From an uncultured delta proteobacterium (GTDB taxonomy: Bacteria; Desulfobacterota; Binatia; UBA9968), in assembly GCA_963760795.1 (NCBI GenBank), contig CAVXEP010000019.1:160001-224000 (forward strand): 64,000 nt of DNA, read 5' to 3'. Shown here one piece after another: positions 5,052 to 63,361 of this stretch (position 1 is the first letter of the stretch; the number at the start of each line of letters is the position of its first letter). Position numbers and translations under genes: made by a program. The notes beneath the pieces are model-generated. The model did not search any database. It saw nothing but the letters and a program-made list of their open reading frames with translations, and was not told where the DNA came from.

Positions 5052-6467
5052 TCAAGCTTTGGCTCGCTCAACTGCTTGTTTGAGTCGAGCAATGCTGCGG
5101 TCTTTGCCGAGCACCGCGATGACATCGTGGATGCCTGGGCTTACGGTCGATCCGGTTAGCGCGACCCGCACCGGTTGCGCTAGTTCGCCCATCTTCAGGC
5201 GCTGTTCTTCGAGCGTGCTGGTGAAGGCATGCTCGATGTTGGCTTCGGTGAATTCACTCAGCGCCGCTAGTTTGCCGGCCAGGGAGGACATGCTGTCGGC
5301 TGCGGCTGCGGTCAAAAACTTCGCCGCGGCGTTCTCGTCGTAGACGATTCGGTCGTCGAGATAGTACCGCGCCATCTCCACCAGCTCGACCAAAGTCTTG
5401 GCGCGCTCGCGCAAAGTTGCGATCATCTTTTCGAGCCACTGGCGATCCTGAGGTACTGGATAGCCCTTCGCTTGGATATACGGGACGACTTCTTCAGCCA
5501 GTTGAGACAGTGGTTTGGTCTTCAAATAGTGAAAATTCACCCAGAGAAATTTTTCGGGATTGAAAATGCCTGCAGCCTTGCCGACATGTTCCAAGCTGAA
5601 CATGTCGAGCAATTGCTGGCGCGTAAATATCTCCTGGTCGCCATGGGACCAGGCCAGACGGACGAGATAATTTACCACCGCCTCGGCTAAGTAACCCATG
5701 TCGCGATAGGTGATGACCGAAGTGGCGCCATGGCGCTTGCTCAGCCGCGCCTTGTCGGTACCCAAGATGAGCGGCACATGAGCGAATTGTGGTAGCGGAC
5801 TGCCCAAAGCTTGGTAGAAATGAATCTGCCGCGGCGTGTTGGACAGATGGTCGTCGCCGCGGATGATATGGCTGATCGCCATGTCGATGTCGTCGACGAC
5901 GACGCAGAAATTATACGTCGGCGTGCCGTCGGTGCGGGCGATGATGAGATCGTCAAGCTCGCGGTTTTCAAAGACGACATCGCCCTTGATCAAATCTTTG
6001 ACCACCGTCGTGCCCTCGCGCGGAGTGCGAAAGCGGATGATATAGGGCGTGTCGGTGGGCAGCGCCGCAATCACGCCTTCTGCGGGCCGGCAAGTGCCGT
6101 CATAGGAAGGTTTGCGTTTTTCTTTCATCGCCGCTTGGCGTTTGGCGTCGAGCTCCGCGGCACTGCAAGTGCAGGGATAAGCTTTGCCCATGGCCAAGAG
6201 TTCCTGGACCTTTTGCCGGTAAAGCGGGTAGCGCTCGGTCTGATAAAACGGCCCCTCGTCGTAATCGAGTTCGAGCCACTTCATGGCGTCGAGAATCGCC
6301 TGGATCGCCTCGGGGGTCGACCGTTCGCGGTCGGTGTCTTCGATGCGCAGGATAAACTTGCCGCCATGATGACGCGCGAAGAGGAAATTAAACAGCGCGG
6401 TGCGCGCGCCGCCGATATGGAGGTAGCCGGTCGGGCTGGGAGCGAATCGGGTTCTGACTTGTGCCAT
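5052..6467 (-). CDS. gltX: Glutamate--tRNA ligase
   Basis: RFAPSPTGYLHIGG (HIGH), LSKRH (KMSKS equivalent), 471 aa. Confidence 0.97.
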   Translation of the reverse strand: MAQVRTRFAPSPTGYLHIGGARTALFNFLFARHHGGKFILRIEDTDRERSTPEAIQAILDAMKWLELDYDEGPFYQTERYPLYRQKVQELLAMGKAYPCTCSAAELDAKRQAAMKEKRKPSYDGTCRPAEGVIAALPTDTPYIIRFRTPREGTTVVKDLIKGDVVFENRELDDLIIARTDGTPTYNFCVVVDDIDMAISHIIRGDDHLSNTPRQIHFYQALGSPLPQFAHVPLILGTDKARLSKRHGATSVITYRDMGYLAEAVVNYLVRLAWSHGDQEIFTRQQLLDMFSLEHVGKAAGIFNPEKFLWVNFHYLKTKPLSQLAEEVVPYIQAKGYPVPQDRQWLEKMIATLRERAKTLVELVEMARYYLDDRIVYDENAAAKFLTAAAADSMSSLAGKLAALSEFTEANIEHAFTSTLEEQRLKMGELAQPVRVALTGSTVSPGIHDVIAVLGKDRSIARLKQAVERAKA

Positions 6468-6571: not shown

Positions 6572-8290
6572 ATGGCAGAGGGAGACAGTAGCAAAGATAG
6601 CTCGGCGAATGAGTCGGTGCCATCTCATTTCATTCGTAACATTGTCGTTGAGGATATTCGGCAGAACAAAAATCACGGCCGAGTCCATACTCGGTTCCCG
6701 CCGGAGCCCAATGGCTACTTGCACATCGGTCACGCCAAATCGATCTGTCTCAATTTCGGCTTGGCTGCCGAGTTCGGCGGCAAGTGCAATCTGCGTTTCG
6801 ACGACACGAATCCAAGCAAGGAAAATGTCGAGTACGTCGATTCGATCAAAGAAGACGTCCGCTGGCTAGGGTTCGCTTGGGACGGAGAATATTACGCCTC
6901 GGATTATTTCGAGCGGCTCTACCAGTTTGCCGCGCAATTAATTCACGCCGGGATGGCGTTTGTTTGCGATCTCAACGCCGAGCAGATGCGCCAGTATCGC
7001 GGCACGCTCACCGAGCCGGGCAAGCCCAGCCCCTATCGCGACCGCTCGGTGGACGATAATCTCGACCTGTTTCAGCGCATGCGCACCGGCGAAGTGCCGG
7101 ACGGCGGCCGCACGTTGCGCGCCAAGATCGATATGGCGTCGCCCAATATCAATCTGCGCGATCCGGTCATGTACCGGGTGCTGCGCGCGACCCATCATCG
7201 CACCGGCGATAACTGGTGCATTTATCCAACCTACGACTTCGCCCACGGCCAATCCGATTCCATCGAAGGCATTACGCACTCGATTTGCACGCTGGAGTTC
7301 GAGGATCACCGGCCGCTGTACGATTGGTTTTTGGATCGACTGGCCGTGCATCATCCGCAGCAGATCGAATTTGCCCGGCTCAATCTAACTCACACCGTGT
7401 TGAGTAAGCGTAAGCTCCTGCAACTGGTCCAGCAAAAGCTTGTGGCCGGCTGGGACGATCCGCGCATGCCGACGTTGGCCGGCATCCGCCGGCGCGGTTA
7501 TACGCCGGAAGCGATTCGTAATTTTTGCGAGCGGATCGGCGTGGCCAAAGGCAACAGCACCGTCGATATCGCCATGCTTGAGCATAGTCTGCGCGAGGAT
7601 CTCAACAAGCGCGCGCCGCGCGTGATGGCGGTGTTGCGGCCGATCAAAGTCGTCTTGGAAAACTATCCTGAGGGTCAGGTCGAAGAGTTGGAAGCGGTCA
7701 ACAACCCTGAAGACCCTAGCGCCGGCACGCGCAAAGTTCCGTTCTCCCGCGAGCTTTACATCGAGCAGGACGATTTCCGTGAAGAGCCGCCCAAAGGATT
7801 TTTCCGTCTCTCACCAGGCACAGAGGTCCGTCTGCGTTACGCCTATATCATCAAGTGCAACGAAGTCGTAAAAGATCCCAGCAGCGGTGAGGTGCGCGAG
7901 TTGCGCTGCACCTACGACTCGGAAACGAAAAGCGGCTCGTCGCGAAGCAAGCGCAAAGTCAAAGCGACAATCCATTGGGTATCCGCATCTCATGCCGTCG
8001 AGGTTGAAGTCCGACTCTACGATCATCTTTTCGCGGTGGAGGACCCCGATGACGTACCGGAAGGCGCCGATTGGCTCGCTAACATCAATCCCAGTTCCCT
8101 GGAGCGTCTCGTCGCGTGCCGTGTCGAGCCCAGTCTCGCTGGCGCAAAAATCGGCGAGCGCTATCAGTTCGAACGGCTGGGGTATTTCTGCGTCGATCGG
8201 GAGTCGACGGATCAACGAAATGTGTTCAATCGCTCAGTAACGCTGCGGGATACATGGGTGAAAGTGGGGAGGGTGAGGAGGAGCACCTAG
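6572..8290 (+). CDS. glnS: Glutamine--tRNA ligase
   Basis: [39 protein letters not shown]. Confidence 0.97.
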
Positions 8291-8382: not shown

Positions 8383-9654
8383 TTAAAATTTATACCCCAC
8401 TGATACGATGACAAAGTTACTAAACGTTTCATACTGATCTTTGCCTGGAGCGCCTGCGAAGGGTATTCCGGTCGCAGGTGTCCCTTCCAGCTCGTTGTTG
8501 GTTATCCGGCGAGTTTTGTAGAATACCGCTTGATAACCCAGGTCGAAAGAAAATTTTTCCCATTTATAGCCGATACCTACATTCAAGGTGAGTTTGTCTG
8601 CATCGGGGATGCTGGGATTTTGTGTGCCGTTTGGTATCGGAGTTTCTTCAACCGCGAGTCCGCCGCGCAGTTCAATATTCTTAGTTAGGCTATAGTGGCT
8701 GCCAAATCTGACCGTACTCGTGTCTTGCCAATTTTGTGGAAGATTAAAACCGGGCAGCGGCCCGCTCTTAAATGTCGCTTTGAATGTCTTAAATTCGCTC
8801 CAGCGGGTAAATTCATAGACTAATTCCGCGCCCCAGGCCGGTGTTATTTGCCAGTGTGCACCGGCGTTAATAACGGGTGGCAGCGGTATCGGCTGAACAT
8901 CTGCTTTCACTTTCTGGCCACCCAGCACTCCACCAAGTTTCGCGTCGGCATCATCGAACCGAATATCTGTCCGTCCACGATAGCTGAATCCAAACTTCCA
9001 GTTATCCAAAGGCTTGATTAATAGACCGACGTTGTATGCGAACGCATTCGTTGTGTCGGTCACGCGCAGGTGCGCTTCTGCCGCTCCAGGCGCGAACGTA
9101 CAAGCCAGAGTGTTAAAGCAAAGAGAGCGAGAGAATAACCCTGACGCATGGACGAAACTAGCACCGGCGCCAATCGACAGTATCGGCGAGGGATGCCAAG
9201 ATAGCGATGGAGTGACATACAATGTTCGAAGCTCCGTACGTTCGGCGGCGAAACGGGTGAAGTCCCGCTCATACGTTGTCGCAAGTCCAAAAGGTGTGTA
9301 GGTTCCGATACCCGCCGAAATGTCAGTGCCGGGGATATGATAGTTGGCGAAGAGGCTCCCGAGGAAGTTGTCGTCGTGTTTGTTTACTGCCTCTCGGCCA
9401 CTATTCTCCACCGAACTTACGGCCCCAATATACATTCCATTGAGGAGAAGGTTGTTCCCAGGCACTTCTGAAAGCGCAGCAGGGTTATAATAGACGGCAG
9501 ACGCATCATCAACGCCGGCAGTCATGGCATTGGAGAGAGACAGTGCTCGAGCGGTCTGGTGTGGTATCATGAACCCGCCCGAAATCGCCAAGTCGTTTCC
9601 GTTAAGCAAAGTGACCAATAATAGACCGTAAAATCCTAATCTCGTGTTGGCCAT
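8383..9654 (-). CDS. FadL/OmpP1/TodX-family outer-membrane channel for hydrophobic compounds
   Basis: Signal peptide then GGF..; DDASAVYYNPAAL hatch motif; PFGL; SIPDAD; C-terminal GYKF. ATG 9654 preferred over the ORF-track start at 9744. Confidence 0.9.
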   Translation of the reverse strand: MANTRLGFYGLLLVTLLNGNDLAISGGFMIPHQTARALSLSNAMTAGVDDASAVYYNPAALSEVPGNNLLLNGMYIGAVSSVENSGREAVNKHDDNFLGSLFANYHIPGTDISAGIGTYTPFGLATTYERDFTRFAAERTELRTLYVTPSLSWHPSPILSIGAGASFVHASGLFSRSLCFNTLACTFAPGAAEAHLRVTDTTNAFAYNVGLLIKPLDNWKFGFSYRGRTDIRFDDADAKLGGVLGGQKVKADVQPIPLPPVINAGAHWQITPAWGAELVYEFTRWSEFKTFKATFKSGPLPGFNLPQNWQDTSTVRFGSHYSLTKNIELRGGLAVEETPIPNGTQNPSIPDADKLTLNVGIGYKWEKFSFDLGYQAVFYKTRRITNNELEGTPATGIPFAGAPGKDQYETFSNFVIVSVGYKF

Positions 9655-9673
9655 CTGATTCCTTAGAAAATCG

Positions 9674-9730
9674 TTGACTCTTAGAGCCGGACTTTGTATA
9701 TCAATGCAAACAATTGCCAATGATTGCCAT
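9674..9730 (+). promoter_or_regulatory. sigma70-like promoter followed by three 10-bp-period direct repeats
   Basis: TTGACT(9674)-N17-TATATC(9697); repeats TCAATGCAAA / CAATTGCCAA / TGATTGCCAT at 9701-9730; RBS GAGGAG before ATG 9744. Confidence 0.6.
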
Positions 9731-9743
9731 AAGTGAGGAGCCA

Positions 9744-9935
9744 ATGCAAGAAAATTTACTAACGGCCGAGCAGGTCGCTCAGTATCTGAAAGTGGATAAA
9801 TTCACGGTCTACCGTTTGGTGACCAAGAAAAAGATTCCAGCTTTCAAAGTCGGTAACCAATGGCGATTCGATAAGAAAATTATCGACGCTTGGCTTTTGA
9901 AGAACTCGAACATGGGAGATCAGACAAATCTTTAA
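9744..9935 (+). CDS. HTH_17 (excisionase/BldC-like) small DNA-binding protein
   Basis: LLTAEQVAQYLKVDKFTVYRLVTKKKIPAFKVGNQWRF; strong RBS. Confidence 0.9.
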   Translation: MQENLLTAEQVAQYLKVDKFTVYRLVTKKKIPAFKVGNQWRFDKKIIDAWLLKNSNMGDQTNL

Positions 9936-10013
9936 TATGAACAACGTTAGGGGAGTTAGGATCGCCCTAGCAAAGTTGCTGAGTACCCCCACTAGAATTC
10001 GCGGATTGGCGTA

Positions 10014-11276
10014 GTGATGCACTCGAATGAGAGAAAAGTAGCCATTACCGGTCTTGGGGTTTTATCCCCAATTGGGATTGGAAAAGAGCTGTTTTGGGAG
10101 GGTATCAAAAGTGGGCGTTCGGGCATCAAACCGATCACAGCGTTCAACTCGGAAACCTTTCCGGTTCGCATAGCAGGTGAAATTTGCGATTTTGATCCTC
10201 ATTCTTTTTTCCCGCAAATCCTCCTTCGACGGCTGGATCGTTTTGCCGTGATGGGACTAGCAGCCACAAAGCTCGCAATGGAAGACGCCGCTCTACCCGA
10301 TAAATTTAGCGAGGACGAAAGCGATAGGGTCTGTGTTCGAATCGGGACCGCAATCGGCGCTTTGGCCCATGCGGAGGAAGTTCATTCGATCTTCATTGAG
10401 AAAGGGGCTAGGCGCATCCCGCCTTTTTTTAGTAGCTTAGTCTTACCAAGTTCACTTGCCACTCAAATCGGTATGTTTTGTGGCGTACATGGCTCAATAT
10501 CCACGATAGTCTCAGCGTGTGCATCCGGAACTTCGGCTATCGGCGAGGCATTTAGGCTGATTCGGCGAGGTGAATATGATGTGGCCATCACTGGTGCATC
10601 GGACGCGCCGATTACACCTTTGGTCATTACAGCGTTCTCCTCAGTTGGCCTTCTGTCATCACGTAACGATGAGCCGACTATGGCCTGTCGTCCATATAGT
10701 ATCGACCGCGATGGGATTGTGCTTGCTGAAGGTGCAGCCATCGTTATTCTCGAAGAAATGAATCATGCTCTCTCTCGTGGTGCTCGAATTTATGGGGAAA
10801 TTCTTGGTTATGGGGAGGCTTTTGATGGCTTTCACACCCACCATCCGCTTCCCTCAGGTGATTTCTGCGTGAGAGCGATGTCTGCCGCACTTAATGATGC
10901 TCACCTTAACTGTGACGACGTCGATTATGTGAATCCGCACGGAAGTGCATCAATTCAAAATGATAAAGCAGAAACGATGGCGATAAGGAAAGTTTTTGGC
11001 AACCATGCAGGGCAACTTTGTGCGAGTTCGACGAAGTCCATTATTGGTCACAGTCTCGGAGCTTGCGGTGCGTTAGAATTTCTCGCCTGTGTTTTAATGT
11101 TAGATCGTCAGTACATTCACCCAACCCTCAACTTAACCAGCCAGGATCCGGAGTGTGATCTTGACTTCGTTCCAAATGTTGGACGAGCGACGTCTGTTCG
11201 AAACATCATGAAATTGTCGAGCGGATTTGGTGGTTACAATGCTGCCTGCGTACTCGGCCAAGGCGATCATAGATAA
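10014..11276 (+). CDS. Stand-alone beta-ketoacyl-ACP synthase II (FabF-like ketosynthase)
   Basis: VAITGLG, SACASG (Cys), NPHGS (His), IGHSLG (His), GFGG. Confidence 0.9.
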   Translation: MMHSNERKVAITGLGVLSPIGIGKELFWEGIKSGRSGIKPITAFNSETFPVRIAGEICDFDPHSFFPQILLRRLDRFAVMGLAATKLAMEDAALPDKFSEDESDRVCVRIGTAIGALAHAEEVHSIFIEKGARRIPPFFSSLVLPSSLATQIGMFCGVHGSISTIVSACASGTSAIGEAFRLIRRGEYDVAITGASDAPITPLVITAFSSVGLLSSRNDEPTMACRPYSIDRDGIVLAEGAAIVILEEMNHALSRGARIYGEILGYGEAFDGFHTHHPLPSGDFCVRAMSAALNDAHLNCDDVDYVNPHGSASIQNDKAETMAIRKVFGNHAGQLCASSTKSIIGHSLGACGALEFLACVLMLDRQYIHPTLNLTSQDPECDLDFVPNVGRATSVRNIMKLSSGFGGYNAACVLGQGDHR

Positions 11277-11277
11277 C

Positions 11278-13449
11278 GTGTCCTGGTACATTATAAATTA
11301 TTTGTTCGGGGCTTTGTCTTCACTTGTTGCTGGACTCTTCATTTTATATCGAGGAGAGACGCGAGTGTCGACGAGGCGAACCTGGTTCGCCCTTTGTGTA
11401 TCTGTCAGCGGCTGGCATCTCGGTCGTTTTCTGATGACTCAAGCCGCAACCGAGGTTGTTGCCCAATACGCAACGCTGATAGTTTATCTTGGAGCGATAC
11501 TGATACCTCCAACGTATTTGCATTTTGTACTTTCTTTATTGACAGAAGAAAAGCGACATTTGAGGCTGTTAGTTGTGGCGTATGGTGTTGCCCTGATCGA
11601 GTTCTTTTTCTACTTTCATGGGTCGCTCTTGAGTGGAGTACGGCAGTATTCATACGGAGGATTCTACGAGATCCCTGGGGAGTTTTACCTGGTATACGTT
11701 GCTAGTTTCGTCGCCTTGCCAATCATAGCGTTCGCTAAATTACTCGACTCTTTTCGCCGCACCGATGCGGTTGTGAAGAGAAACCAACTCAAATACGTAA
11801 TTTATTCAACTGTGATTGGGTTCGTTGCGGGCGGCATGTCGTTCACTCCATTCTTTACGTCGCAAGTGCCACCCTTTGGGGCGCCTCTAGTCTATCTCTA
11901 TACTTTGCCTATTACCTATGCCGTTACGCATTATCGGTTAATGGATATCAGCGTAGTCATTAAGCGAAGTGTCATTTACGCGGCGTTACTTGTAGGACTG
12001 TTAATCCCGTGTTTCCTAGTCGTCATTTGGGGACAGCATCTTGCCTTTGACGCCGTAAATGTCAATTTTTCTGTCGCGATTCTTCTTTTATTCATAACTG
12101 TCGGTTTTTTATTTCCCAAAGTTCGCTTCAGAACCGAAGATGCGCTAGAGCGAGTGCTGTTCAAGAAGGGATTTGACTACCGTGAAACCCTGCTGCGCTC
12201 CAGCCAAGACATGGTCTCAATCGTCGAAATCAAAGCGCTATCTGTAAAACTCGTTGAGACTATCGGCAAGTCGCTGCGGATTGACAAAGTTTCGCTTCTG
12301 CTCAGCAACGAAGGGAAGGGCAGTTACAATTTAGAAGCGAGCGTTGGCCTCGACTTCGAGCATCCGGAGCGAATACTCTTGTCGCGCGATGGACCCTTGA
12401 TCAAGCTCTTGCAGAGCCGCAAAGAGCCGATCATCAAGGAGGAGCTAGAGTGGGTGCCGGTGGGACCGGAGACGCCGCAGACGATTGACACCATGGGCAA
12501 GCTCGGCGCGGAGATCAGTTTGCCGATCATCTCGAAGGAAAAGCTCATCGGTATTTTGAATTTGGGCCACAAAGAAGACAAATCTCTTTACTCGGATGAA
12601 GATTTGGAATTGCTTTCAACCCTAGGGAATCAGGCGGCGATCGCCATCGAAAACGCCCGGCTATATGAAAATCTCAAACAATCCCAAGTGACTCTGCGGC
12701 GAGCCGATCGGCTTTCTTCGTTAGGTTTGTTGACCGCCGGGCTGGCCCATGAGATCCGCAATCCGTTGGTGGCGATCCGCACCTTTACACAACTCTTGCC
12801 AGAACGCTACAATGACGCGGAATTCCGCGATGGGTTTCAGGGTTTGGCGCTCAAAGAGGTTGACCGCATTTGTGGTTTGATCAACGATCTGCTCAGTTTC
12901 GCGCGCCCGTCTAAGCCCAATGTCGCGCCGGAAAATATCAACGATGTGGTCGACAACATCGCGCGTATTTTGGAGGCTCAGGCCAAGGAAAAAGGCGTTG
13001 TCATCGTTCGCGACTTCGCCACCGAGGTTCCCAAGGCCTGGATTGACAGAGAACAGATGAAGCAGGTATTTATGAACCTCATACTCAATGCGATCCAAGC
13101 CATGGACGGAGAGGGTTCCATCACAATCTCGAGCCGGGAGGTTACGCGCCGAGGCACGGCGCCGGTCGGGCAGTTTGTCCAGGTGGAGGTGCGCGATACC
13201 GGTGTCGGTATTCCGGACGATAATCTGGAGCATATTTTCGATCCGTTCTTTACCAGCGGCAAGGAAGAAGGCAGTGGCTTGGGGTTGGCCGTGTCTCATC
13301 AGATTGTCGAGGAACATGGCGGTTTTCTCACCGTGGAGAGTAAGGTAGGACAGGGAACCGGGTTTTTTGTCCATTTGCCTGTTAGCGCTCCGGTTCGGGC
13401 CGGCGCGAGCGGTATGGCTAACACCCACGAGCGGTACGGTTTTCACTGA
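11278..13449 (+). CDS. Sensor histidine kinase: N-terminal multi-TM (HisKA_7TM-like) region, GAF, HisKA, HATPase
   Basis: GTG 11278 lies 1 nt after the ketosynthase stop; TYAVTHYRLMDI at the end of the 7TM region; GAF (NQAAIAIENARLY); AHEIRNPL; NAIQAM; DTGVG; GSGLGL. Confidence 0.92.
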   Translation: MSWYIINYLFGALSSLVAGLFILYRGETRVSTRRTWFALCVSVSGWHLGRFLMTQAATEVVAQYATLIVYLGAILIPPTYLHFVLSLLTEEKRHLRLLVVAYGVALIEFFFYFHGSLLSGVRQYSYGGFYEIPGEFYLVYVASFVALPIIAFAKLLDSFRRTDAVVKRNQLKYVIYSTVIGFVAGGMSFTPFFTSQVPPFGAPLVYLYTLPITYAVTHYRLMDISVVIKRSVIYAALLVGLLIPCFLVVIWGQHLAFDAVNVNFSVAILLLFITVGFLFPKVRFRTEDALERVLFKKGFDYRETLLRSSQDMVSIVEIKALSVKLVETIGKSLRIDKVSLLLSNEGKGSYNLEASVGLDFEHPERILLSRDGPLIKLLQSRKEPIIKEELEWVPVGPETPQTIDTMGKLGAEISLPIISKEKLIGILNLGHKEDKSLYSDEDLELLSTLGNQAAIAIENARLYENLKQSQVTLRRADRLSSLGLLTAGLAHEIRNPLVAIRTFTQLLPERYNDAEFRDGFQGLALKEVDRICGLINDLLSFARPSKPNVAPENINDVVDNIARILEAQAKEKGVVIVRDFATEVPKAWIDREQMKQVFMNLILNAIQAMDGEGSITISSREVTRRGTAPVGQFVQVEVRDTGVGIPDDNLEHIFDPFFTSGKEEGSGLGLAVSHQIVEEHGGFLTVESKVGQGTGFFVHLPVSAPVRAGASGMANTHERYGFH

Positions 13450-13765
13450 TAATGCGGACCTTAGTCATTGATGAGTCTGTGGGCGTTTACAAAACGCCGA
13501 CTTCAACCAGCTGTTGCAAAGCGCGATTGCGCTCGAGGAAAAGACCAAAATCGCCGGCGGCCAGATTCACGCCTTGCACTAAACGGTAACCCCGTTTGAT
13601 TGGAAGAAAAACGGACGCTTCAGACCAATTTGCTCCGACAAAAAACAGCTGGCGTACATCGAACGATCGTTGTTCGATTGTCATTCTTGTCACTTTTTGC
13701 CCACCGTTGACAGTGTCAAGGTTGCTTCCCGCAAGCTAACTGTTTGAAAAATAAACGCTGCGAAT

Positions 13766-13781
13766 TGGCCTGTAGGTTGCT
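13766..13781 (+). promoter_or_regulatory. sigma54 (-24/-12) promoter
   Basis: TGGCCTGTAGGTTGCT with correct GG-N10-GC spacing; IHF-like TAACTGTTTGAAA at 13737-13749; RBS GAGGAG and ATG at 13805 downstream. Confidence 0.7.
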
Positions 13782-13804
13782 GATAGACAGCTCTGAGGAG
13801 TACC

Positions 13805-14053
13805 ATGACATGTTGATCAGCCAGCCCGGACCTTGGCCATGACCTCGGTCAAGGTGGCCCTATGGGGTCGGTCGCCGATTGCTTGAACGCCCACAGCGTT
13901 CGGCCCGAGGATAGCCGCCTGCTGCTTGGTGCGTTGTTAGCCAAACATTGGGTGGAAAAAAACGGCGACCGCTTTATCACGGACCAGCCCAAGGCGGAAA
14001 TAGACATGGTTAGAATGGAGTTCCCGATTGTTGAGTACGGAAAAAAAAACTGA
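13805..14053 (+). pseudogene. Probable gene remnant; C-terminal part resembles a degenerate HATPase end
   Basis: RBS+ATG 13805 reads MTC-TGA, then continues in frame into ORF 13862..14053; LGALLAKHWVEKNGDRF...VRMEFPI aligns loosely with GLGLAVSHQIVEEHGGFL...FVHLPV of the upstream kinase. Confidence 0.4.
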
Positions 14054-14054
14054 C

Positions 14055-15467
14055 ATGAGTCAGCCCTTATTGTTGGTGGTGGACGACGAAGCCGGCGTGC
14101 GCCAATCGCTGCAAATGGTGTTCAACAAGATTTACCGGGTTTTGGAAGCCTCGTCCGCCGATGAAGCGATGCAGAAGGTTACCGAGGAAAGGCCAGACGC
14201 TGTGCTCTTGGACGTCATGATGCCGGGCGCCGACGGCCTCGGTGTGCTCAAGCAAATCAAATCTATCCACCCCGACTGCCAGGTGATCATGCTCACCGGT
14301 ATCAATACCGCCAGAACGGCATTTACGGCCAAGGGAACTGGCGCCTTCGATTATGTGACCAAGCCATTTGACGTGGAAGAACTGCGTTTGCGCGTCGAGC
14401 ATGCGCTGGAAAAAGTCCAGCTGTCGAGAGAATTGGAGCGCTTGAAGGAGGAAGTCGGCCGCAAGTACGGCATCGACTTCATCATCGGCAAGTCCAAGCA
14501 AATCACCGACGTCTTCAAAGCGGTCAGCATGGTGGCGGCGAAAAAAAGCACGGTGCTGATTACCGGTGAAAGCGGCACCGGCAAGGAACTCATCGCCAGG
14601 GCGATTCATTACAATAGTGACCGGCGCTCGAAACCTTTCGTGGTGGTGAACTGCGCCGCCTTGCCGGAAAATTTGATGGAGAGCGAGCTGTTCGGTTATG
14701 AACGAGGCGCTTTTACTAACGCGTCGCAGAAGAAGATCGGCCGCTTCGAACTCGCCCATGGCGGCACGTTTTTCCTTGATGAGATCGGCGAACTCGACAT
14801 CGGTGTCCAAGCGAAGTTTCTGCGCGCTATCGAACAAGAGACTTTCAGCCGTCTTGGTGGTACGGACGAAATCAAAGTGGACGTGCGCATCATCGCGGCG
14901 AGTAACCGCGATCTGGAGCAGATGGCCAAAAACGCTGAGTTCCGGCCGGATCTGTTCTACCGGCTCAATGTGATTTCTTTGTTCTTGCCCCCGCTGCGCG
15001 AACGCCGTGACGATATTGTCTTGTTGCTCGACCATTTCTTGCGCCTCAAATCCCAGGAACATTCGATCGCTGCCAAGACGCTGTCCCCTGAGGTTGTCGA
15101 CTTTTTCACGTCTTATCCTTGGCCAGGTAACATTCGCGAGCTGGAGAATTTGATCGAACGCCTGACGATTTTGACGCCTCAAGAAACCGTGACGCTGCGC
15201 GATTTGCCGCCGAGCTTGCGCTCGACGGATCAAACCGCCACGCTCAAAGAAGACGTCTTGAGCGGTTCGCGGCCGCTGAGCGACGCGGTTGACGAGTTCG
15301 AGCGCGAGCTGATCGTCAAAGCCTTGCAGCGCACCGGCTTCAATCAGACCAAGGCCGCATTGATTCTCAACACCAGCCGGCGCATCCTCAAGTACCGCAT
15401 CGAGAAACTCAAGATCCACAATCCCAACGATGAGGACGACGATGACGAGGTGAAATTATCGTCATAA
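14055..15467 (+). CDS. sigma54-dependent response regulator (NtrC/AtoC family)
   Basis: REC, GESGTGKE, ELFGYERGAFTNA (GAFTGA variant), FLDEIGE, C-terminal Fis-type HTH. Confidence 0.95.
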   Translation: MSQPLLLVVDDEAGVRQSLQMVFNKIYRVLEASSADEAMQKVTEERPDAVLLDVMMPGADGLGVLKQIKSIHPDCQVIMLTGINTARTAFTAKGTGAFDYVTKPFDVEELRLRVEHALEKVQLSRELERLKEEVGRKYGIDFIIGKSKQITDVFKAVSMVAAKKSTVLITGESGTGKELIARAIHYNSDRRSKPFVVVNCAALPENLMESELFGYERGAFTNASQKKIGRFELAHGGTFFLDEIGELDIGVQAKFLRAIEQETFSRLGGTDEIKVDVRIIAASNRDLEQMAKNAEFRPDLFYRLNVISLFLPPLRERRDDIVLLLDHFLRLKSQEHSIAAKTLSPEVVDFFTSYPWPGNIRELENLIERLTILTPQETVTLRDLPPSLRSTDQTATLKEDVLSGSRPLSDAVDEFERELIVKALQRTGFNQTKAALILNTSRRILKYRIEKLKIHNPNDEDDDDEVKLSS

Positions 15468-15557
15468 TTGGACATTTTTGTTGCCTTCAGCTTCCTTAAC
15501 GGTCCCTTCTTGCGGGAAAACTCCCTCTAAATTCAATCCCTTACCTAAAACCCCTGG

Positions 15558-15573
15558 TGGCATGCGCCTTGCT
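15558..15573 (+). promoter_or_regulatory. sigma54 (-24/-12) promoter
   Basis: TGGCATGCGCCTTGCT, near-consensus; IHF-like ATTCAATCCCTTA at 15531-15543. Confidence 0.75.
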
Positions 15574-15587
15574 GAAATAGCTTCGCT

Positions 15588-16697
15588 ATGGATGCCAGCA
15601 AACCCAACATATTAGTCGTCGATGACGAGATGGGACCGCGAGAATCGCTCAAGATGATTCTCAACCCCTATTACAATGTGCTTATCGCCGACCGGGGCGC
15701 CCAGGCGATCGAGATGCTCAAGCGGCATCCGGTGGACCTGGTGACCTTAGATCTCAAGATGCCGGGGCTGACCGGCATCAACGTGCTGGAGAAGGTCAAA
15801 GCCCATGATCCCGACATCGAGGCCATCATCATCACCGGCTATGGCTCGCTCGACACGGCCATCGAAGGTTTACGCCTGGGCGCGTTCGATTATATCTCTA
15901 AGCCCTTCGACGTGAACCACATCCTGTCGCTGGTCCGGCGTGGCTTGGAACGGCGCACCGCGAAGGCCAAACTGCGCCAGGTCAAGTCCGATTTTCTCTC
16001 CAACGTTTCCCATGAACTGCGCACGCCGCTCAGCGTGGTTGTCGGCTTCGTCTATCTGCTGCTCAACCAGGTCATCGGCAAGCTCAGCGAGGAACAGCAG
16101 AAGGTTCTCGAAACCGTCTACCGCAATTCGGAAGAGCTTTTGGAGTTGATCGATAACGTGCTGTGGATGACTTCGCTCAACGCCGGCGACGCCAGCGCCA
16201 GTGTCGAGAAGTTCGATGCCCGCGATCTCGTCAAGGAATCGGTTGACCGGCACGAGAAGATGATCCGCGATAAGGGCTTGCAACTCAATGTGCAGTTCGC
16301 CGACGGCGATTTGTCGATGGTCAACGACCGCGCCAAAGTCGAACGGGTTTTTCAGAATATTTTTAATAACTCAGTCAAGTTCACCGCGGCAGGCGAAATC
16401 ACGATCAATGTCGGCGCGTCGGCGGACCGCGCCGCTATGGATTTTGAAATCATCGACACCGGGGTCGGTATCGAGCAGGACAAAATCGCCACGATTTTCG
16501 AACCGTTTCATCAAGCCGACAATTCGTCGCGGCGCGCCTTCTCCGGTTTGGGCATCGGGCTCACGGTGGCGCGCCGCATGGCTGATCTCATCGGTGGTAA
16601 ACTAAGCATCACCAGTAATCCCAACGTCGGGACCCGAGTCCTCATGAGCTTCCCGGCCCAGGCGGCGCTGGCCGCGCAACAGAGAAAATATGCTTAA
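15588..16697 (+). CDS. Hybrid receiver - histidine kinase (REC-HisKA-HATPase)
   Basis: ILVVDDE...LDLKMP...KPF; VSHELRTPL; NNSVKFT; DTGVG; GLGIGL. Confidence 0.93.
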   Translation: MDASKPNILVVDDEMGPRESLKMILNPYYNVLIADRGAQAIEMLKRHPVDLVTLDLKMPGLTGINVLEKVKAHDPDIEAIIITGYGSLDTAIEGLRLGAFDYISKPFDVNHILSLVRRGLERRTAKAKLRQVKSDFLSNVSHELRTPLSVVVGFVYLLLNQVIGKLSEEQQKVLETVYRNSEELLELIDNVLWMTSLNAGDASASVEKFDARDLVKESVDRHEKMIRDKGLQLNVQFADGDLSMVNDRAKVERVFQNIFNNSVKFTAAGEITINVGASADRAAMDFEIIDTGVGIEQDKIATIFEPFHQADNSSRRAFSGLGIGLTVARRMADLIGGKLSITSNPNVGTRVLMSFPAQAALAAQQRKYA

Positions 16698-17391
16698 CCC
16701 GAAATTTATCCGCTGCCGCAACTGTGATGCCGTGCATCATGTGACAGCGTTTGATAAAGCGCCCAGCTATTCCGTTTCAGCCGGCAAAGCCAACGAAACG
16801 GCGGCCAACGATTGGCATGATTTTATGAGCAGTCATGCCGGCCATCGGCTCGAACCGCTTGAGGCCACCGGGCAGAGCTATTTCTCCGACGGCCCGAGCT
16901 CCGATCCCATGGCCACTGGCTTTATCGAGGCTACCGACGGCAAGGAGACCGTCTTACTGCGGCGGGTTCGGTCGACTATTCAGGAGCCACTGCGGTTTGA
17001 ATGGGTTCCAGGCCGACTGGTCCCGGGAGAGTCGACTCTCGACGTACAGGAAAACTCGCTGCGCAAGGAAATGAAACTGCATTTTCCCTGGGCGCCGGCA
17101 GAGCCTTTGTCCGACCAGAAAATCGATTTGTTCGTGCACCTTTATCGCCAGGTCGTCAGCGGCCTCGACGCCCGCTCTGTTTACAGCCGCGAGTTCACCC
17201 TGGTCGATGACAATATCGTTTACGGACAGCTGGACGCTGCCGCCTGGAGCACGCTCCTGGACAATTGCCGAAGCTGCTTTACCACGGACGAGGTGGCGGC
17301 GTTACGCCGATTCATCGAATGCCACCGCGACGCGGACGATGTTTTGGCAGTGGTGATCCGGCGTGGCATGGTCGTCGAGCAACGGCTGTAA
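16690..17391 (+). CDS. Hypothetical protein with CxxC...HxxH putative zinc site
   Basis: Overlaps the kinase stop by 8 nt; CRNCDAVHH...HAGH. Confidence 0.7.
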   Translation: MLNPKFIRCRNCDAVHHVTAFDKAPSYSVSAGKANETAANDWHDFMSSHAGHRLEPLEATGQSYFSDGPSSDPMATGFIEATDGKETVLLRRVRSTIQEPLRFEWVPGRLVPGESTLDVQENSLRKEMKLHFPWAPAEPLSDQKIDLFVHLYRQVVSGLDARSVYSREFTLVDDNIVYGQLDAAAWSTLLDNCRSCFTTDEVAALRRFIECHRDADDVLAVVIRRGMVVEQRL

Positions 17392-17752
17392 CCTTGCCGC
17401 TATTGCCGACCTCACTCCTATAACTTCACGGACCAAAGCACGCAACCCGGCTGCCATTTCTGAAACATCTTCGATAAGGCATCGGTTGACGTGCCCCTCG
17501 CCATTGGGTGAACTCACTCCTTTCTACATCATTCACGGCGAAATGTTCGGACTAGTTTGTCGCGTTCTTGGCTAGCTCGCTGTCGCCCACGCGATTTTTT
17601 TCTGACACTGAATCGTTTGCTTGCATGCTACTGCCCAGTGGTGGCATATCCGTCTTGTACAGTCGGCGTCCTCGATTCGCGCGAGGTATAAGCGCTTTCA
17701 CCGTGCCGACTGTGAGTGAAGCAAACTGGAGAATCAACGGAGGCAATGCAGC

Positions 17753-59824: not shown

Positions 59825-61129
59825 TTATTGTTTGATATCTCGCGGCGCGCTTTTCCTTAGTAACGAGGCGAGAAGCTCAAGGCGCTCCTTCGAAAGATTC
59901 TTGAGCGCGGATGACGAACGATCGCTCTCGCGGGCGTACGCGTCTTGCTTTACCGCAGGCACAGCAGCCAGATTTTCCAGATATTCCTCAACCGGCGCGA
60001 TCGAAAGCTTCGAAACATAGTTCTCTGCGGCCTCCCGGGAGGCTGTAGATAGCTCGTCGTAATGCTGCCGATCAGAGAGAAGTCGCTTCAACGCGTCGAG
60101 CCAAGGCCGAATGTCTTGCTCGGGGACGAACGGGACTGGAAGCATCTGGTCATCTCTGTGCGTTTGGTATCGCGCGATGGGTTCAACCGGCAAGAGATAG
60201 TCCACACCTAGTTTTGCTTCGGGTAGGCCGCCCAGATTGCTAGCCAAGACCGGAATTCCTCTGAGCATCGACTCGACGACGATCTTGCCAAAGGCTTCCC
60301 CCCAGAGCGATGGCACCAGCATAATGCGGGTCCGGGCAAAAATCTGATCTATATCCTCGGTCGGCTGAAGCATCTCTACATTAGGAAATTGTTTTAGGGC
60401 AACCCGGTCGGCAGCGGTGGTAGCCCAAGTCGGCACAGCAGCAAACTTTTCCGCAGGTAATGCGCGCGCCAGCTCTAAAAAGATGGCAATTCCTTTGATC
60501 GCCGACGGGTTGACCATCGTAATGAAGGGGTTATCCAATGATCCGAAGTAGGGCCACGGGGGGTTCCCGAAAACCGGCAAGGAAATGGCGACCGAGTTCA
60601 GGCCGCCCCACTTAAAAATATAACTCTTCAGGTAATTGCTGACCGCTATGATTCCGGCCGTTCGTTGGAGCATTTCTGCTTTCAATGGATCTGGCGAAAA
60701 ACACTCTGGACCGAAAGGCAGAGTTGCCTGGCTGTGCGATAGAAAAACAACACGCCCCGGCACGCTCTCCAGGGCAGCCGCAAGGGCGAGATAACTAGGA
60801 TCCTCGGATATCAAAATCCAATCCGGCCTAAACTCTTCAGCTTGCTTCAGAAGCTCGCCGCAAAATTGACTGGGGTCGGCGAGTTGGTGAACCTGAACGC
60901 CATGGAGATCAAATTTCTCGGCCAAAGGCGAGAATCCCGCATGGGTCGGATCCAATGACTCGTTGCGCGATCCGCGGCGCGGCGCGAAATGTGTTGCGGT
61001 GTGCGACAACGCGAGGACTCTGCACAGGTGGCCTCTTCGGCTAAGATATTGCAGCAGCTCGCGGTTCGATTTTGCTGCCCCGGTCCATGTCGGTGAATAG
61101 GATAATTTCTGCGCCAGAAATATTTTCAC
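59825..61129 (-). CDS. Family 4 glycosyltransferase with NRPS-docking-like C-terminal tail
   Basis: IAVSNY, LVPSLWGEAFGKIVVESMLRGIPVLASNLGGLPE (EX7E). Confidence 0.88.
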   Translation of the reverse strand: MKIFLAQKLSYSPTWTGAAKSNRELLQYLSRRGHLCRVLALSHTATHFAPRRGSRNESLDPTHAGFSPLAEKFDLHGVQVHQLADPSQFCGELLKQAEEFRPDWILISEDPSYLALAAALESVPGRVVFLSHSQATLPFGPECFSPDPLKAEMLQRTAGIIAVSNYLKSYIFKWGGLNSVAISLPVFGNPPWPYFGSLDNPFITMVNPSAIKGIAIFLELARALPAEKFAAVPTWATTAADRVALKQFPNVEMLQPTEDIDQIFARTRIMLVPSLWGEAFGKIVVESMLRGIPVLASNLGGLPEAKLGVDYLLPVEPIARYQTHRDDQMLPVPFVPEQDIRPWLDALKRLLSDRQHYDELSTASREAAENYVSKLSIAPVEEYLENLAAVPAVKQDAYARESDRSSSALKNLSKERLELLASLLRKSAPRDIKQ

Positions 61130-61142
61130 GAATACGCCACAC

Positions 61143-63341
61143 TCAGTCCTGGCTGTGATCTTCCCTGGTTAGCAGCGATTTAACCTGATCATCGGATAGT
61201 CCTTCGATTTTCTTCAAAACGACATCAAGTTCATCGACGCTGGCGGCATCTGCTTGTGCCATTAGAATCTCTCGGCAGAGTCCGCCGATAGTAAGTTTAG
61301 TCGTAAAGAATAGTCTCACTGGGAGCTCAACGCCCAAATCTTTTCGGATGCGGGAGAGAACCTGCATACCGAGAAGTGAGTGACCTCCCAAATCGAAAAA
61401 GTTGTCATCGACGCCAATACGCTCCAATCCCAGCAGTTCCGACCACATGTGAGCCAGACGGTTCTCGAGCGGAGAACGCGGCGGCACGAACGGCACGACC
61501 TCCCGCGGCAGAGGACGGCGCGTTTGTAAAACCACGCGGTGGATTCTTTCGGCGTCGTTAAGTTCAATGGCAATAGAACTCAACAGCGACGCCTTTTCTC
61601 GGGCACCTCGCGTATCGGCGGCAATGACCGAAGACTCCTCGTCCTCGGCGGTCGCCGCGGTGATTGTCGCCGCCTCCTGTGGCCGGTATTCGATGGCCGC
61701 CGCATACACGGCGGGAAATTTGAAAAGATAACCTCCGTCAATTGTTTCCTTCAAATCCGCGCCGACACTCTCCAAAAACTCCAATGCGGGGCGATTTTTC
61801 TTGGTTTGGAGATAGCGCACTTCGACTCGATCGAAATCTCGCTGCATAGCAATTTCGCCTAGTCTCGACAGCAGGCGATGCTCTACGCCTTTGCCGAGAG
61901 CGCGGCAACTCAGCAGGAAGGTGTCCACGAGAATGCAAGCAACGGCTCTAAAAATAATTGCGCCAACGAGACCATAGTCGCCAAACCGATCTCTCAGGTT
62001 TACGGTGAGACACTCTGCGTCTTCTTTTTGACAGAGACTCTGAATTTCGCTCTCGGAACGTCGCTGGGTCGTACAGTTAAACTGGTTGGTTCTCTGGGTT
62101 AATTCCGCCACGCGGGGAATTTGACGCGTCACCAACGGCGCAATCTCGATTGTCAGATCGAGACCCGCTAGGAAATCGCTAAAACTAAGCGATGCCTTAT
62201 GAAAACTCGCCCGCTCGGAACTCTGTTTATACGCTAGATTGCGTTGTTGTCCTTCGGCGGTGACTTTGAGATGATCAAAGATCCACAGATGCGATAAAAA
62301 CTGCCCCGCCTGCTCGGGGTCCCGCGGAACTTGGAAGGTCAACACTTCAGGGCAGTGCGATTGCACTTCCGCGCACTCGACGGGATCGTCATCGAGAAAG
62401 ATGAAACTGTCGGCGCCGAGGTTCAACTCCTGTGCTAAAGCTCTGATGTTTTCCGATTTTTGCCGCCAATTGATTCGCCGGGCGACAAAATGATCGAGTT
62501 TCAAAGGCATATCGGAGCGATTTGTAAATACCTCGACGACATCAGCCTCATTGTTTTTGCTGCACAAACAAAGGAGCATTCCGGCATGATATTGTTCGAG
62601 CAGGAACTCTTGGATTTTCTTCCATGGCGGAGTTATCGCTATGCCAGCCGCGCCATCTTCGCCGCATACCCCGCCCCAGAGCGTCTGATCGCAATCCAGC
62701 ACGATTACCTTATAGGGGTCGCTCGTAAGGGTGTAAATTTTACGCGCGAGCATTGTCGCCAAGGCGCTGAAGAATAATGGCGTGAACGGGATATGCGCTA
62801 ACCTGTCACTGTCAGGATCATAATATTCCGCTACCGGATAGCAGGCGAATAGTTCAGCCGGCGTAATGACGTGGACTCCGGGTATTGCTTGCAGCTCGGT
62901 CTGCAGCGACGCGACTATATCTTCGACAAATCGTTTTCTCTCCGGGTCCATCACAACCGCCGGTGACGCCGGACATAAACAGACGAGCTGCGGCGTCGCC
63001 GAACGCTCGGCGGCGGTTGTAACGGCGCGCGCAAAGTCGCGCGCGTCACGTTCGAGCGCCGGAAACGACAGTTCGGCAGCTTGACGCCCTGCGGCACTCT
63101 TTTGCCAGTCTTCAAAGCCTACCAGAATAATATTGACACCCGTGCGGTTGGTGGCGAGCAAGCTAGACGGATCGACGAGTTGTTGAAATACCTGGTTGTA
63201 CGGCGCAAAAGTGATCCGCGCCGGTATCTGGAGTTCCTCCAGCCAGAAGGTCAGCGGTCGCTCGAGCGGCTCTGCTGTAAAGGTAGCTGTGATCGCGATC
63301 GTTTGCTCTGCGTTCCGAGTATCCAACTCATCATTCAACAT
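61143..63341 (-). CDS. FkbH-like (HAD-IIIC) glyceryl transferase/phosphatase fused to a carrier (PCP) domain
   Basis: VLDCDQTLWGG, SKNN, FLDD, RTNQFN, DRFGDYG, LLSCR; PCP motif DNFFDLGGHSLL. Confidence 0.92.
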   Translation of the reverse strand: MLNDELDTRNAEQTIAITATFTAEPLERPLTFWLEELQIPARITFAPYNQVFQQLVDPSSLLATNRTGVNIILVGFEDWQKSAAGRQAAELSFPALERDARDFARAVTTAAERSATPQLVCLCPASPAVVMDPERKRFVEDIVASLQTELQAIPGVHVITPAELFACYPVAEYYDPDSDRLAHIPFTPLFFSALATMLARKIYTLTSDPYKVIVLDCDQTLWGGVCGEDGAAGIAITPPWKKIQEFLLEQYHAGMLLCLCSKNNEADVVEVFTNRSDMPLKLDHFVARRINWRQKSENIRALAQELNLGADSFIFLDDDPVECAEVQSHCPEVLTFQVPRDPEQAGQFLSHLWIFDHLKVTAEGQQRNLAYKQSSERASFHKASLSFSDFLAGLDLTIEIAPLVTRQIPRVAELTQRTNQFNCTTQRRSESEIQSLCQKEDAECLTVNLRDRFGDYGLVGAIIFRAVACILVDTFLLSCRALGKGVEHRLLSRLGEIAMQRDFDRVEVRYLQTKKNRPALEFLESVGADLKETIDGGYLFKFPAVYAAAIEYRPQEAATITAATAEDEESSVIAADTRGAREKASLLSSIAIELNDAERIHRVVLQTRRPLPREVVPFVPPRSPLENRLAHMWSELLGLERIGVDDNFFDLGGHSLLGMQVLSRIRKDLGVELPVRLFFTTKLTIGGLCREILMAQADAASVDELDVVLKKIEGLSDDQVKSLLTREDHSQD

Positions 63342-63361
63342 TGGCTCTTTGCTCCATCGAT

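Follow-up and report, generated by a model that had tools for sequence, protein, structure and literature searches.

We analysed a stretch of 64,000 nucleotides (64 kb, in the following called the window) of contig CAVXEP010000019.1 from an uncultured bacterium of the Binatia. At 8383-17391 of the window, a gene for a FabF-like beta-ketoacyl synthase (KS) directly precedes the gene for a sensor histidine kinase (HK) with a predicted seven-transmembrane (7TM) region and a GAF domain, and a gene for an NtrC-type response regulator follows. The best explanation is that the system belongs to an undescribed two-component family, in which a 7TM(-GAF) kinase is accompanied by an adjacent enzyme of fatty-acyl thioester metabolism. 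An initial annotation had covered the genes from the FadL-family channel to the activator. It was incomplete, having overlooked the remnant of a lost gene in the gap between kinase and activator as well as the extension of the system to 17391. The genes are as follows (aa, amino acids):

8383-9654, minus strand: FadL/OmpP1/TodX-family outer-membrane channel (Pfam Toluene_X), divergent from the HTH_17-KS-HK operon
9744-9935, plus strand: HTH_17 (excisionase/MerR-like) DNA-binding protein of 63 aa, first gene of the operon (Pfam, TIGR01764)
10017-11276, plus strand: FabF-like beta-ketoacyl synthase (Pfam ketoacyl-synt N- and C-terminal domains)
11278-13449, plus strand: 7TM-GAF-HisKA-HATPase_c sensor histidine kinase (Pfam)
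14055-15467, plus strand: NtrC-type response regulator with REC, Sigma54_activat and HTH_8 domains (Pfam)
15588-16697, plus strand: REC-HisKA-HATPase protein (Pfam)
16690-17391, plus strand: 233-aa protein without family match, overlapping the REC-HisKA-HATPase gene by 8 nucleotides (nt)

The KS and kinase genes are separated by a single nucleotide, as had been noted initially: the KS stop codon TAA occupies 11274-11276 and the GTG start codon of the kinase lies at 11278, a start that is backed by homologues whose N-termini begin at the same residue. The description of the KS as an orphan with an intact Cys-His-His triad also held over the whole 64 kb, as neither acp, fabG or fabD nor a second KS was found among the 47 open reading frames (ORFs) scanned. 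Those close homologues of the kinase and of the FadL protein that carry an organism name come from metagenome-assembled genomes of Candidatus Binatia. Close metagenomic relatives of the KS show 56-80% sequence identity, and the kinase has more than 100 clusters of equal-length homologues at 57-80% identity.

Related loci were collected by a kinase alignment scan with one genome per species, and the best 80 of 599 matched stretches were analysed. The sensor domain was searched in these loci with a local hidden Markov model (HMM) of the 7TM region, which matched ORFs in 21 of the 80 loci, 12 of them above 80 bits and 9 more weakly. Two of the 12 strong loci (L001, L008) are truncated by the end of their contig, so that 10 can be evaluated. 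In all 10 of them, an enzyme of the acyl-ACP type (ACP, acyl carrier protein), acting on fatty-acyl thioesters, is found beside the kinase. A tabulation of the slot taken by the KS had been proposed initially, and it yielded acyl enzymes of several classes:

FabF-like KS directly upstream of the kinase: L003 and, as a C-terminal fragment at the edge of its contig, L002
neighbouring divergent cluster that includes a KS: L005 (together with ACP, acyl-CoA dehydrogenase and MMPL); L017 (together with MMPL)
LuxD-like acyltransferase fused to a methyltransferase (LuxD-MT): L006, L010, L011, L018
acyl-ACP-reductase-like enzyme: L012, L069

The methyltransferase fusions are restricted to Nitrospirota relatives. 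The enzymes from L012 and L069 score 76-78 bits with TIGR04058, far under its cut-off, and also match the PigE N-terminus. The enzyme type can switch within one kinase clade, as L006 (LuxD-MT) and L012 (reductase-like) are sisters in the kinase tree (support 97). Among the 9 loci with weaker 7TM matches, a KS precedes the kinase in three (L027, L030, L031), five have no acyl enzyme at the slot (L040, L057, L074, L078, L080) and one is cut (L025).

A KS is encoded in the flanks of 7 of the 21 loci with a 7TM kinase, but in only 1 of the 59 loci without (Fisher p = 2.4e-4; the loci stem from about five lineages and cannot be counted as independent). Conservation of gene order had been named as a check on the initial proposal, and the KS-kinase order does recur, in at least five lineages. 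When the best 120 KS homologues were compared with the best 120 HK homologues, 8 were found on contigs of identical base count, with about 0.75 expected from near-misses; 3 of these 8 shared-size contigs exceed 20 kb. The slot census and its control favour a tie between kinase and acyl enzyme, and we therefore consider it very probable that the two are functionally coupled.

This coupling would carry no signalling meaning if the KS of the window were an ordinary FabF, either the housekeeping enzyme or a spare elongating KS that happens to lie next to a kinase gene. The protein resembles FabF in many respects. It has the FabF fold with both KS domains at full length (PF00109, 155.7 bits; PF02801, 108.9 bits), and alignment with the motifs of E. 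coli FabF reveals a complete catalytic set (Cys169, His309, Lys341, His346 and the gating Phe405). Its closest PDB relatives are all FabF (5sxo_A, E 1.1e-111, residues 6-414 aligned), it is 46-48% identical to two named FabF from Firmicutes (P0235, P0242), and it scores 448 with the subfamily model PRK07314 (cut-off 387). The lack of any other KS within 64 kb would also suit a housekeeping enzyme.

However, the score with the fabF equivalog model TIGR03150 is 467.5, under the cut-off of 493.75. The same applies to all six sampled members of its clade and sister clade (five of them at 470-491). The KS from L003 and L043 score 436 and 424, and those from L005, L017 and L031 are not listed by this model at E <= 1e-120. 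All three true FabF, from E. coli and the two Firmicutes, score well above the cut-off (651-676). Furthermore, the KS is found outside of a fab cluster, with no acpP, fabG or fabD among its neighbours in the window, and its GC content at third codon positions (GC3) is 0.44, a composition foreign to the genes around it. The adjacency to a kinase in about five lineages, and the replacement of the KS by unrelated acyl enzymes next to orthologous kinases in six loci, are likewise not expected for an ordinary FabF, and we consider this explanation improbable.

Comparison of the KS with FabF in a tree had also been suggested initially. The tree has 80 rows, consisting of the window KS, 70 of its 111 full-length matches, 7 KS from the related loci, and FabF and FabB from E. 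coli; 41 close-clade matches (every second one) and 8 matches outside 400-455 aa were left out, and the tree was computed by a quick LG+G4 search. Six HK-linked KS from other phyla form a single clade (SH-aLRT 98). The window clade (100), this HK-linked clade and the KS from L043 are placed together, apart from E. coli FabF and five FabF from Firmicutes (89), but these six are the only bona fide FabF in the tree and none of them is a housekeeping FabF from Binatia. The check thus came out in part as expected, with a separate clade and scores under the equivalog cut-off; the small number of true FabF and the narrow margin of the score limit its weight.

The active sites diverge as well. KS from the window clade differ from FabF at the positions of T270 and R206 of E. 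coli FabF, two residues which we take to have a role in that enzyme. In the HK-linked KS of L003 (8621-9865) and L017 (6033-7400), the second His is replaced by Gln. In the KS from Chthoniobacterales (L027, 6914-8191; L030, 7016-8371; L031, 6785-8143), both His are replaced while the Cys is retained, and these three are predicted to be incapable of fatty-acid elongation. None of the five KS with an altered catalytic set can, as judged from these residues, be a standard decarboxylating condensing enzyme. Because of these active-site changes, the kinase-linked KS are probably not ordinary FabF.

The 740-aa kinase ORF matches HisKA_7TM at residues 30-241 with 33.4 bits (gathering score 28.6), HisKA with 48.6 bits, HATPase_c with 93.2 bits and three GAF models, and it has about 7-8 hydrophobic segments within residues 1-280. 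An AlphaFold2 (AF2) model of residues 1-300, based on an alignment of 10 sequences, is a helical bundle with a pLDDT of 79.3. PrsK/PrsR-type 7TM-GAF kinases, which pair with sigma-54 activators, had been named initially for comparison. If kinase and activator were such a pair, they would be regulators of an exosortase/PEP-CTERM exopolysaccharide system (XrtA type). The architecture is indeed shared, as PrsK also combines 7TM, GAF, HisKA and HATPase regions and has an NtrC-family partner. However, the kinase scores 133.2 with the PrsK model TIGR02916 (cut-off 300) and the activator 404.4 with the PrsR model TIGR02915 (cut-off 502.6), and no exosortase or PEP-CTERM-type family was found among the 47 window ORFs scanned. 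We know of no pairing of PrsK with an acyl enzyme. A PrsK/PrsR-type function in exopolysaccharide formation is thus highly improbable, although the general resemblance to PrsK/PrsR stands.

The best-scoring named models are AtoS for the kinase (248.4, cut-off 646) and AtoC for the activator (474.3, cut-off 714). The activator also stays under the cut-offs of NtrC (443.4, cut-off 558.6) and LuxO (345.7, cut-off 800). It is 80% identical to its counterpart from L001 and 69% to that from L004.

The FadL-family protein was confirmed, on the minus strand and divergent from the operon, with 205.6 bits for Toluene_X (cut-off 29.7; minus-strand ORF 8383-9744). The score with the FadL equivalog NF007988 is 87.2 (cut-off 585), and by its domain the product is a member of the FadL family rather than a demonstrated orthologue of E. 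coli FadL. We placed the start at ATG 9654 and not at TTG 9744 because homologues have 424-435 aa and because this start yields a signal-peptide-like N-terminus. FadL homologues share contigs of the same base count with KS homologues in 5 exact cases (1.3 expected) and with HK homologues in 2 (0.64 expected); the shared-size contigs have 72676, 53021, 26308, 9125, 5585 and 4108 bases. FadL seems to accompany KS and kinase within a Binatia-like clade only. As a part of the circuit, it can be upheld for this clade and not as a general component. HTH_17, which starts the operon on the other strand, matches Pfam with 62.3 bits and TIGR01764 with 54.6 (cut-off 28.8). An assignment as MAD1 defence protein was rejected (71.3, under the cut-off of 80). 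The intergenic region of 89 nt between the two genes contains one promoter candidate:

9674-9702, plus strand: sigma-70-like promoter candidate TTGACT-17-TATATC

This candidate was found by eye and was not listed by a consensus scanner, its second hexamer ending in C; that it is the operon promoter is inference only.

The window has a divergent gene pair upstream of the system, for glutamyl-tRNA synthetase (GltX; 5052-6467, minus strand) and glutaminyl-tRNA synthetase (GlnS; 6572-8290, plus strand), and this pair is likewise found next to the system in L004. The backbone of L004 (4324-13972) has the same gene order as the window, with identities of 72% for GltX, 79% for GlnS, 75% for HTH_17, 69% for the NtrC-type activator and 59% for the REC-kinase; it also includes an AAA+-HisKA gene and a terminal REC gene. 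HTH_17 is encoded beside GlnS in a locus that has neither KS nor FadL, and therefore we regard it as part of a conserved backbone. It had initially been counted among the components of the KS system, an assignment that is not supported.

Residues 466-718 of the window kinase are 61% identical to the core of the Cache-HAMP kinase from L004. No such relation exists between the sensor parts of the two kinases. Between HTH_17 and this kinase core, L004 has a different input, consisting of a VTC-domain protein, a major facilitator superfamily (MFS) transporter, a phosphonate-type solute-binding protein and an sCache-HAMP sensor. The base composition also changes within the kinase gene of the window. 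GC3 is low for FadL (0.52), HTH_17 (0.53), the KS (0.44) and the 7TM region (0.49), as opposed to 0.66 for the GAF and core parts of the kinase, 0.72 for the activator and 0.69-0.75 for the flanking genes. The dip extends over 8383-12177, up to a point in the kinase gene where the 7TM part gives way to the GAF/core part, which suggests a recombination joint at the border of sensor and transmitter. Because of the swap in L004 and the contrast in GC3, FadL, KS and 7TM sensor can be said to behave as one input cassette, grafted onto a conserved output of kinase core and sigma-54 activator.

On the output side, the following features were found in addition to the genes:

13450-14054: gap of about 600 nt between kinase and activator, with no intact counterpart of the relatives' middle gene
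13487-13693, minus strand: ORF of 68 aa inside the gap, no family
13766-13780, plus strand: sigma-54-type -24/-12 motif TGGCCTGTAGGTTGC, ahead of the gene for the activator
13844-14032, plus strand: remnant with the final ~63 codons of a gene of the type (degenerate REC)-AAA+-HisKA (tblastn)
15558-15572, plus strand: sigma-54-type motif TGGCATGCGCCTTGC, 30 nt before the REC-kinase gene

The remnant was identified with the 610-aa protein from L001 (1869-3701), of which residues 548-610 match with 33% identity (E 4.7e-5). Intact counterparts occur between kinase and activator in L001 (1869-3701), L003 (12052-13599) and L004 (9021-10835). The product of this middle gene has a degenerate sigma-54-type AAA+ domain and an AAA lid fused to HisKA. 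The lineage of the window seems to have lost this component.

The copies of the TGGC-N7-TTGC motif at 13766 and 15558 are both intergenic and correctly oriented. With 2 mismatches to the extended consensus, the motif at 15558 is matched by only one other site in the window, and it has counterparts in L004 (TGGCATACCGCTTGC at 12397, with the gene starting at 12427 and thus at the same 30-nt distance) and in L003 (TGGCAAACTTTTTGC at 15320, 50 nt before a gene coding for a REC-HD_5 protein). We consider the motif at 13766 weaker than that at 15558 because it has no counterpart in L001, L003 or L004. An NtrC-type activator with sigma-54 promoters had been claimed, and the activator as well as the positionally conserved motif at 15558 have stood up, while the motif at 13766, and the number of motifs in the window as given below, do not add to the claim. 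A third exact copy of TGGC-N7-TTGC (17442-17456, minus strand) is intergenic after the gene for the 233-aa protein and antisense toward it; it may be due to chance.

The REC-HisKA-HATPase gene, which is 59% identical to an equally placed gene in L004, is likely the first output of the activator. In L003 and L006, its position is taken by a REC-HD_5 (HD-GYP-type) protein. The subsequent 233-aa protein has no match in Pfam or NCBIfam, but 205 representative relatives were found at E <= 1e-3, with invariant Cys9, Cys12, His49 and His52, and a homologue with 30% identity is encoded at the same relative position in L003 (16542-17300). Its AF2 model is very confident (pLDDT 93.9), and nothing in the PDB matches it (best E 0.05, TM 0.17). 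The protein is a candidate for a new zinc-binding fold and may belong to the output of the system. A relation to NUDIX proteins was rejected, as the leads from the ESM Atlas were below threshold (0.88, 78-82 shared features). Much further downstream, about 50 kb off, the sole PP-binding domain among the scanned window ORFs is found at the C-terminus of a 746-aa protein (61143-63383, minus strand). The first ~640 residues of this protein have no Pfam family at E <= 1e-5, and its gene adjoins a glycosyltransferase gene (59825-61129).

Several lipid-signal systems share the arrangement of a synthase gene beside a kinase gene, and three of them are precedents for the system in the window. CqsA/CqsS-LuxO from Vibrio and LqsA/LqsS from Legionella are known for alpha-hydroxyketone signalling. 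In these, too, the gene for a lipid-signal synthase lies beside that for a multi-transmembrane kinase, and LuxO is a sigma-54-dependent NtrC-type regulator. However, CqsA is a pyridoxal-phosphate-dependent acyl-CoA transferase and not a FabF-type KS, and CqsS is a hybrid kinase with 6 transmembrane segments and without GAF which acts via LuxU. The regulator of the window is not a LuxO orthologue, given its score far under the LuxO cut-off. A scan of 8-18 kb with Rfam at E <= 1 gave no matches and hence neither a known small RNA or riboswitch nor a Qrr-like RNA as in the LuxO system.

In the RpfF/RpfC/RpfG system for diffusible signal factor (DSF), a fatty-acid-derived signal is combined with a multi-transmembrane kinase and a REC-HD-GYP output, reminiscent of the REC-HD_5 proteins after the activator in L003 and L006. 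RpfF, however, is a crotonase and the system has no sigma-54 activator, and the window has a REC-kinase instead of a REC-HD protein. Stand-alone ketosynthases that make a signal are known with PpyS (photopyrones) and DarB (dialkylresorcinols), but these are of the KAS III type and their products are read by cytoplasmic LuxR solos rather than by a membrane kinase.

The third precedent is the Ralstonia pair of PhcB methyltransferase and PhcS kinase, for which quorum sensing by fatty-acid methyl esters has been described (PMC8578825, PMC11960443). Here too, a fatty-acyl enzyme is paired with a membrane histidine kinase, and the acyltransferase-methyltransferase fusions in the slot of the Nitrospirota relatives would fit the formation of methyl esters. 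The output of the Ralstonia pair is PhcA, a LysR regulator and not a sigma-54 activator, and the window has a KS and no methyltransferase. FadL has been linked to long-chain acyl-homoserine lactone signals (PMC9938287) and methyl ketones have been reported to act as bacterial infochemicals (10.1101/2025.10.01.679752).

By architecture, the system of the window is like the lipid-signal kinase systems, but by membership it belongs to none of them, as its enzyme is outside the classes of CqsA, PhcB and RpfF and as the cut-offs of PrsK, PrsR, AtoS, AtoC and LuxO are not reached. In the full-text literature, not covering subscription-only papers, no paper turned up in which a HisKA_7TM kinase is paired with a KS of the FabF type, with a LuxD-methyltransferase or with an acyl-ACP-reductase-like enzyme, and HisKA_7TM itself appears in two papers only, both of them domain censuses. 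This agrees with the initial impression that the combination has not been described.

It had been proposed that the KS and the kinase form a synthase-receptor pair, similar to an autoinducer system, in which the 7TM kinase reads the product of the enzyme. HTH_17, KS and kinase would be expressed as one transcription unit, with KS and kinase being translationally coupled. The FabF-derived KS would make a beta-ketoacyl product, which itself or as a derivative (for example a 3-oxo acid, a 3-hydroxy acid or a methyl ketone) would partition into the membrane, where the kinase would detect it through its 7TM domain. The kinase would then phosphorylate the NtrC-type activator, which would fire the sigma-54 promoters of the genes for the REC-kinase and the protein with the invariant Cys and His residues, and possibly that of its own gene. 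The divergently encoded FadL-family channel would pass the hydrophobic compound over the outer membrane.

That one slot accommodates enzymes of three unrelated classes, and that the class switches within one kinase clade, fits interchangeable makers of ligands. With PhcB/PhcS, CqsA/CqsS-LuxO and RpfF/RpfC/RpfG as known pairs, a ligand-making enzyme combined with a 7TM receptor is, by analogy, the most economical mechanism. The data establish the gene content, the conserved tie between kinase and acyl enzyme, the swappable character of the FadL-KS-7TM input and the conservation of the sigma-54 motif ahead of the output gene. That the ligand is the KS product, and which of the compounds it would be, we infer. 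The same holds for the choice between a signal that passes from cell to cell (quorum sensing) and a report on the lipid state of the cell itself; the cell-to-cell step is a further and unproven one. On balance, we accept the synthase-receptor reading as a tentative one, to which we give somewhat less than even credence.

A number of observations count against it. FadL homologues occur in none of the 80 other loci and HTH_17 in just one (L004), which has no KS. In the window KS, the FabF catalytic set is whole and the score is just 26 bits short of the FabF cut-off, so that the enzyme could simply elongate fatty acids. A sister group around P0223 scores above this cut-off (530.7). ORF domain scans of the window cassette found no thioesterase, dedicated ACP or other release enzyme. 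In a Foldseek search against PDB, the 7TM model matches just generic bundles of G-protein-coupled receptors (best E 9.2e-4, TM ~0.45-0.49), and this generic fold match was not accepted as evidence for homology or lipid binding. The window-wide number of TGGC-N7-TTGC motifs is at the level of chance (6 found, 3.62 +/- 1.75 expected). There is no sigma-54 motif ahead of the KS operon of the window, so that autoinduction, as originally envisaged, is not borne out. In L010, L011 and L018, the operon of enzyme and kinase is preceded, at a distance of 89-228 nt, by a strict TGGCAT-N5-TTGC motif, of which only the repeated position counts as evidence; in these loci it would possibly permit feedback on the enzyme.

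Further points come from the Nitrospirota relatives, where in L006 the slot enzyme itself has REC and PilZ domains. In 11 Nitrospira loci, a LuxD-MT homologue is encoded upstream of a kinase which aligns to that of the window over its C-terminal part only. Five of these enzymes, of 1250-1420 aa, were scanned and are PAS/PilZ/LuxD-like/methyltransferase proteins:

L009: 5381-9553
L016: 5329-9516
L007: 6042-9797
L056: 5579-9793
L020: 3546-7805

All five have PAS and PilZ domains and three also have REC. Further tblastn matches to the Nitrospira LuxD-MT enzyme were obtained in L013, L015, L019, L023, L026 and L028. In four of the five loci (L009, L016, L020, L056), the LuxD-MT gene is followed by that for a kinase of ~430 aa and then by a gene with an NtrC-type match, and the four neighbouring kinases of this size that were scanned all lack the 7TM domain. 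The slot enzyme in these loci may thus be an output that is controlled by phosphorylation and by cyclic di-GMP (c-di-GMP), although a signal source would also fit.

This leads to a rival explanation in which the acyl enzyme is not the source of a ligand but the target of regulation. The kinase would sense the state of the membrane or envelope or another cue, and a co-expressed or phospho-controlled acyl enzyme would alter the lipids of the cell in chain length or through methyl esters, aldehydes or alcohols, comparable to the desaturase under DesK/DesR control. Besides the domain composition of the slot enzymes in L006 and the 11 Nitrospira loci, this is favoured by the sigma-54 motifs that L010, L011 and L018 have ahead of the operon with the enzyme gene, by MMPL lipid transporters beside the KS in L005 and L017 and by the catalytic residues of the window KS, which retains the full FabF chemistry. 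E. coli FabF acts in the thermal control of fatty-acid composition. However, fatty-acid methyl esters and aldehydes would be unusual as membrane lipids, and three unrelated chemistries in one slot are more easily understood as interchangeable ligand makers. The KS from L027, L030 and L031, without catalytic His, would not elongate at all. The window KS itself lacks a receiver domain, its gene precedes that of the kinase, and there is no sigma-54 motif ahead of it. We consider lipid remodelling rather unlikely as an explanation for the window, but it has to be taken seriously.

A second rival starts from uptake. FadL-family channels are uptake channels, and the system might sense an exogenous hydrophobic substrate, a fatty acid or a compound derived from hydrocarbons, which FadL would import and the KS would bind or process, with a pair similar to AtoS/AtoC activating catabolic or adaptive genes. 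AtoS and AtoC are the best-scoring named models and the Ato system responds to a 3-oxo acid; also, the input of L004, with its solute-binding protein and MFS transporter, is of an uptake type and sits on the same backbone. The Ato scores are nevertheless far under their cut-offs, the activator is followed by genes for the REC-kinase and the 233-aa protein rather than by catabolic genes, and condensation, the reaction of a KS, does not belong to catabolism. In addition, FadL is absent from the loci of other lineages, and yet an acyl enzyme is present in all that can be evaluated. We hold a sensor of imported substrates to be quite unlikely.

The synthase-receptor reading can be extended from the window to the family. 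The 7TM-GAF kinases would then be a new and widespread class of lipid autoinducer receptors with plug-in synthases and lineage-specific signals, and FadL-KS-7TM would be a mobile cassette for grafting onto kinase cores and sigma-54 outputs that are already in place. This extension covers uncultivated organisms from soil and sediment in the Binatia, Nitrospirota, Syntrophia-like Thermodesulfobacteriota, Margulisiibacteriota and Verrucomicrobiota. Each enzyme would yield its own signal: a methyl ketone or 3-oxo acid from the KS, a methyl ester from the LuxD-like acyltransferase with methyltransferase, and an aldehyde from the acyl-ACP reductase. This generalization is speculative and we are inclined to doubt it in its full extent.

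Cell-cell and lipid signalling is almost unexplored in the large uncultivated phyla of soil, and the systems based on DSF, CAI-1/LAI-1 and 3-OH-PAME use one enzyme class each. If the kinase family does read the product of the adjacent acyl enzyme, it would constitute a new receptor family and offer a rule by which new signal synthases could be sought in genomes. It would also be an example of cassettes, made up of a sensor domain and a synthase, that are swapped onto a conserved output of kinase and sigma-54 activator. The Nitrospira PAS/PilZ/LuxD-like/methyltransferase proteins look like a fatty-acyl enzyme under the control of phosphorylation and c-di-GMP. Even if the acyl enzyme should turn out to be a regulated lipid-remodelling enzyme, the family would represent a conserved and undescribed tie of two-component signalling to fatty-acyl metabolism.

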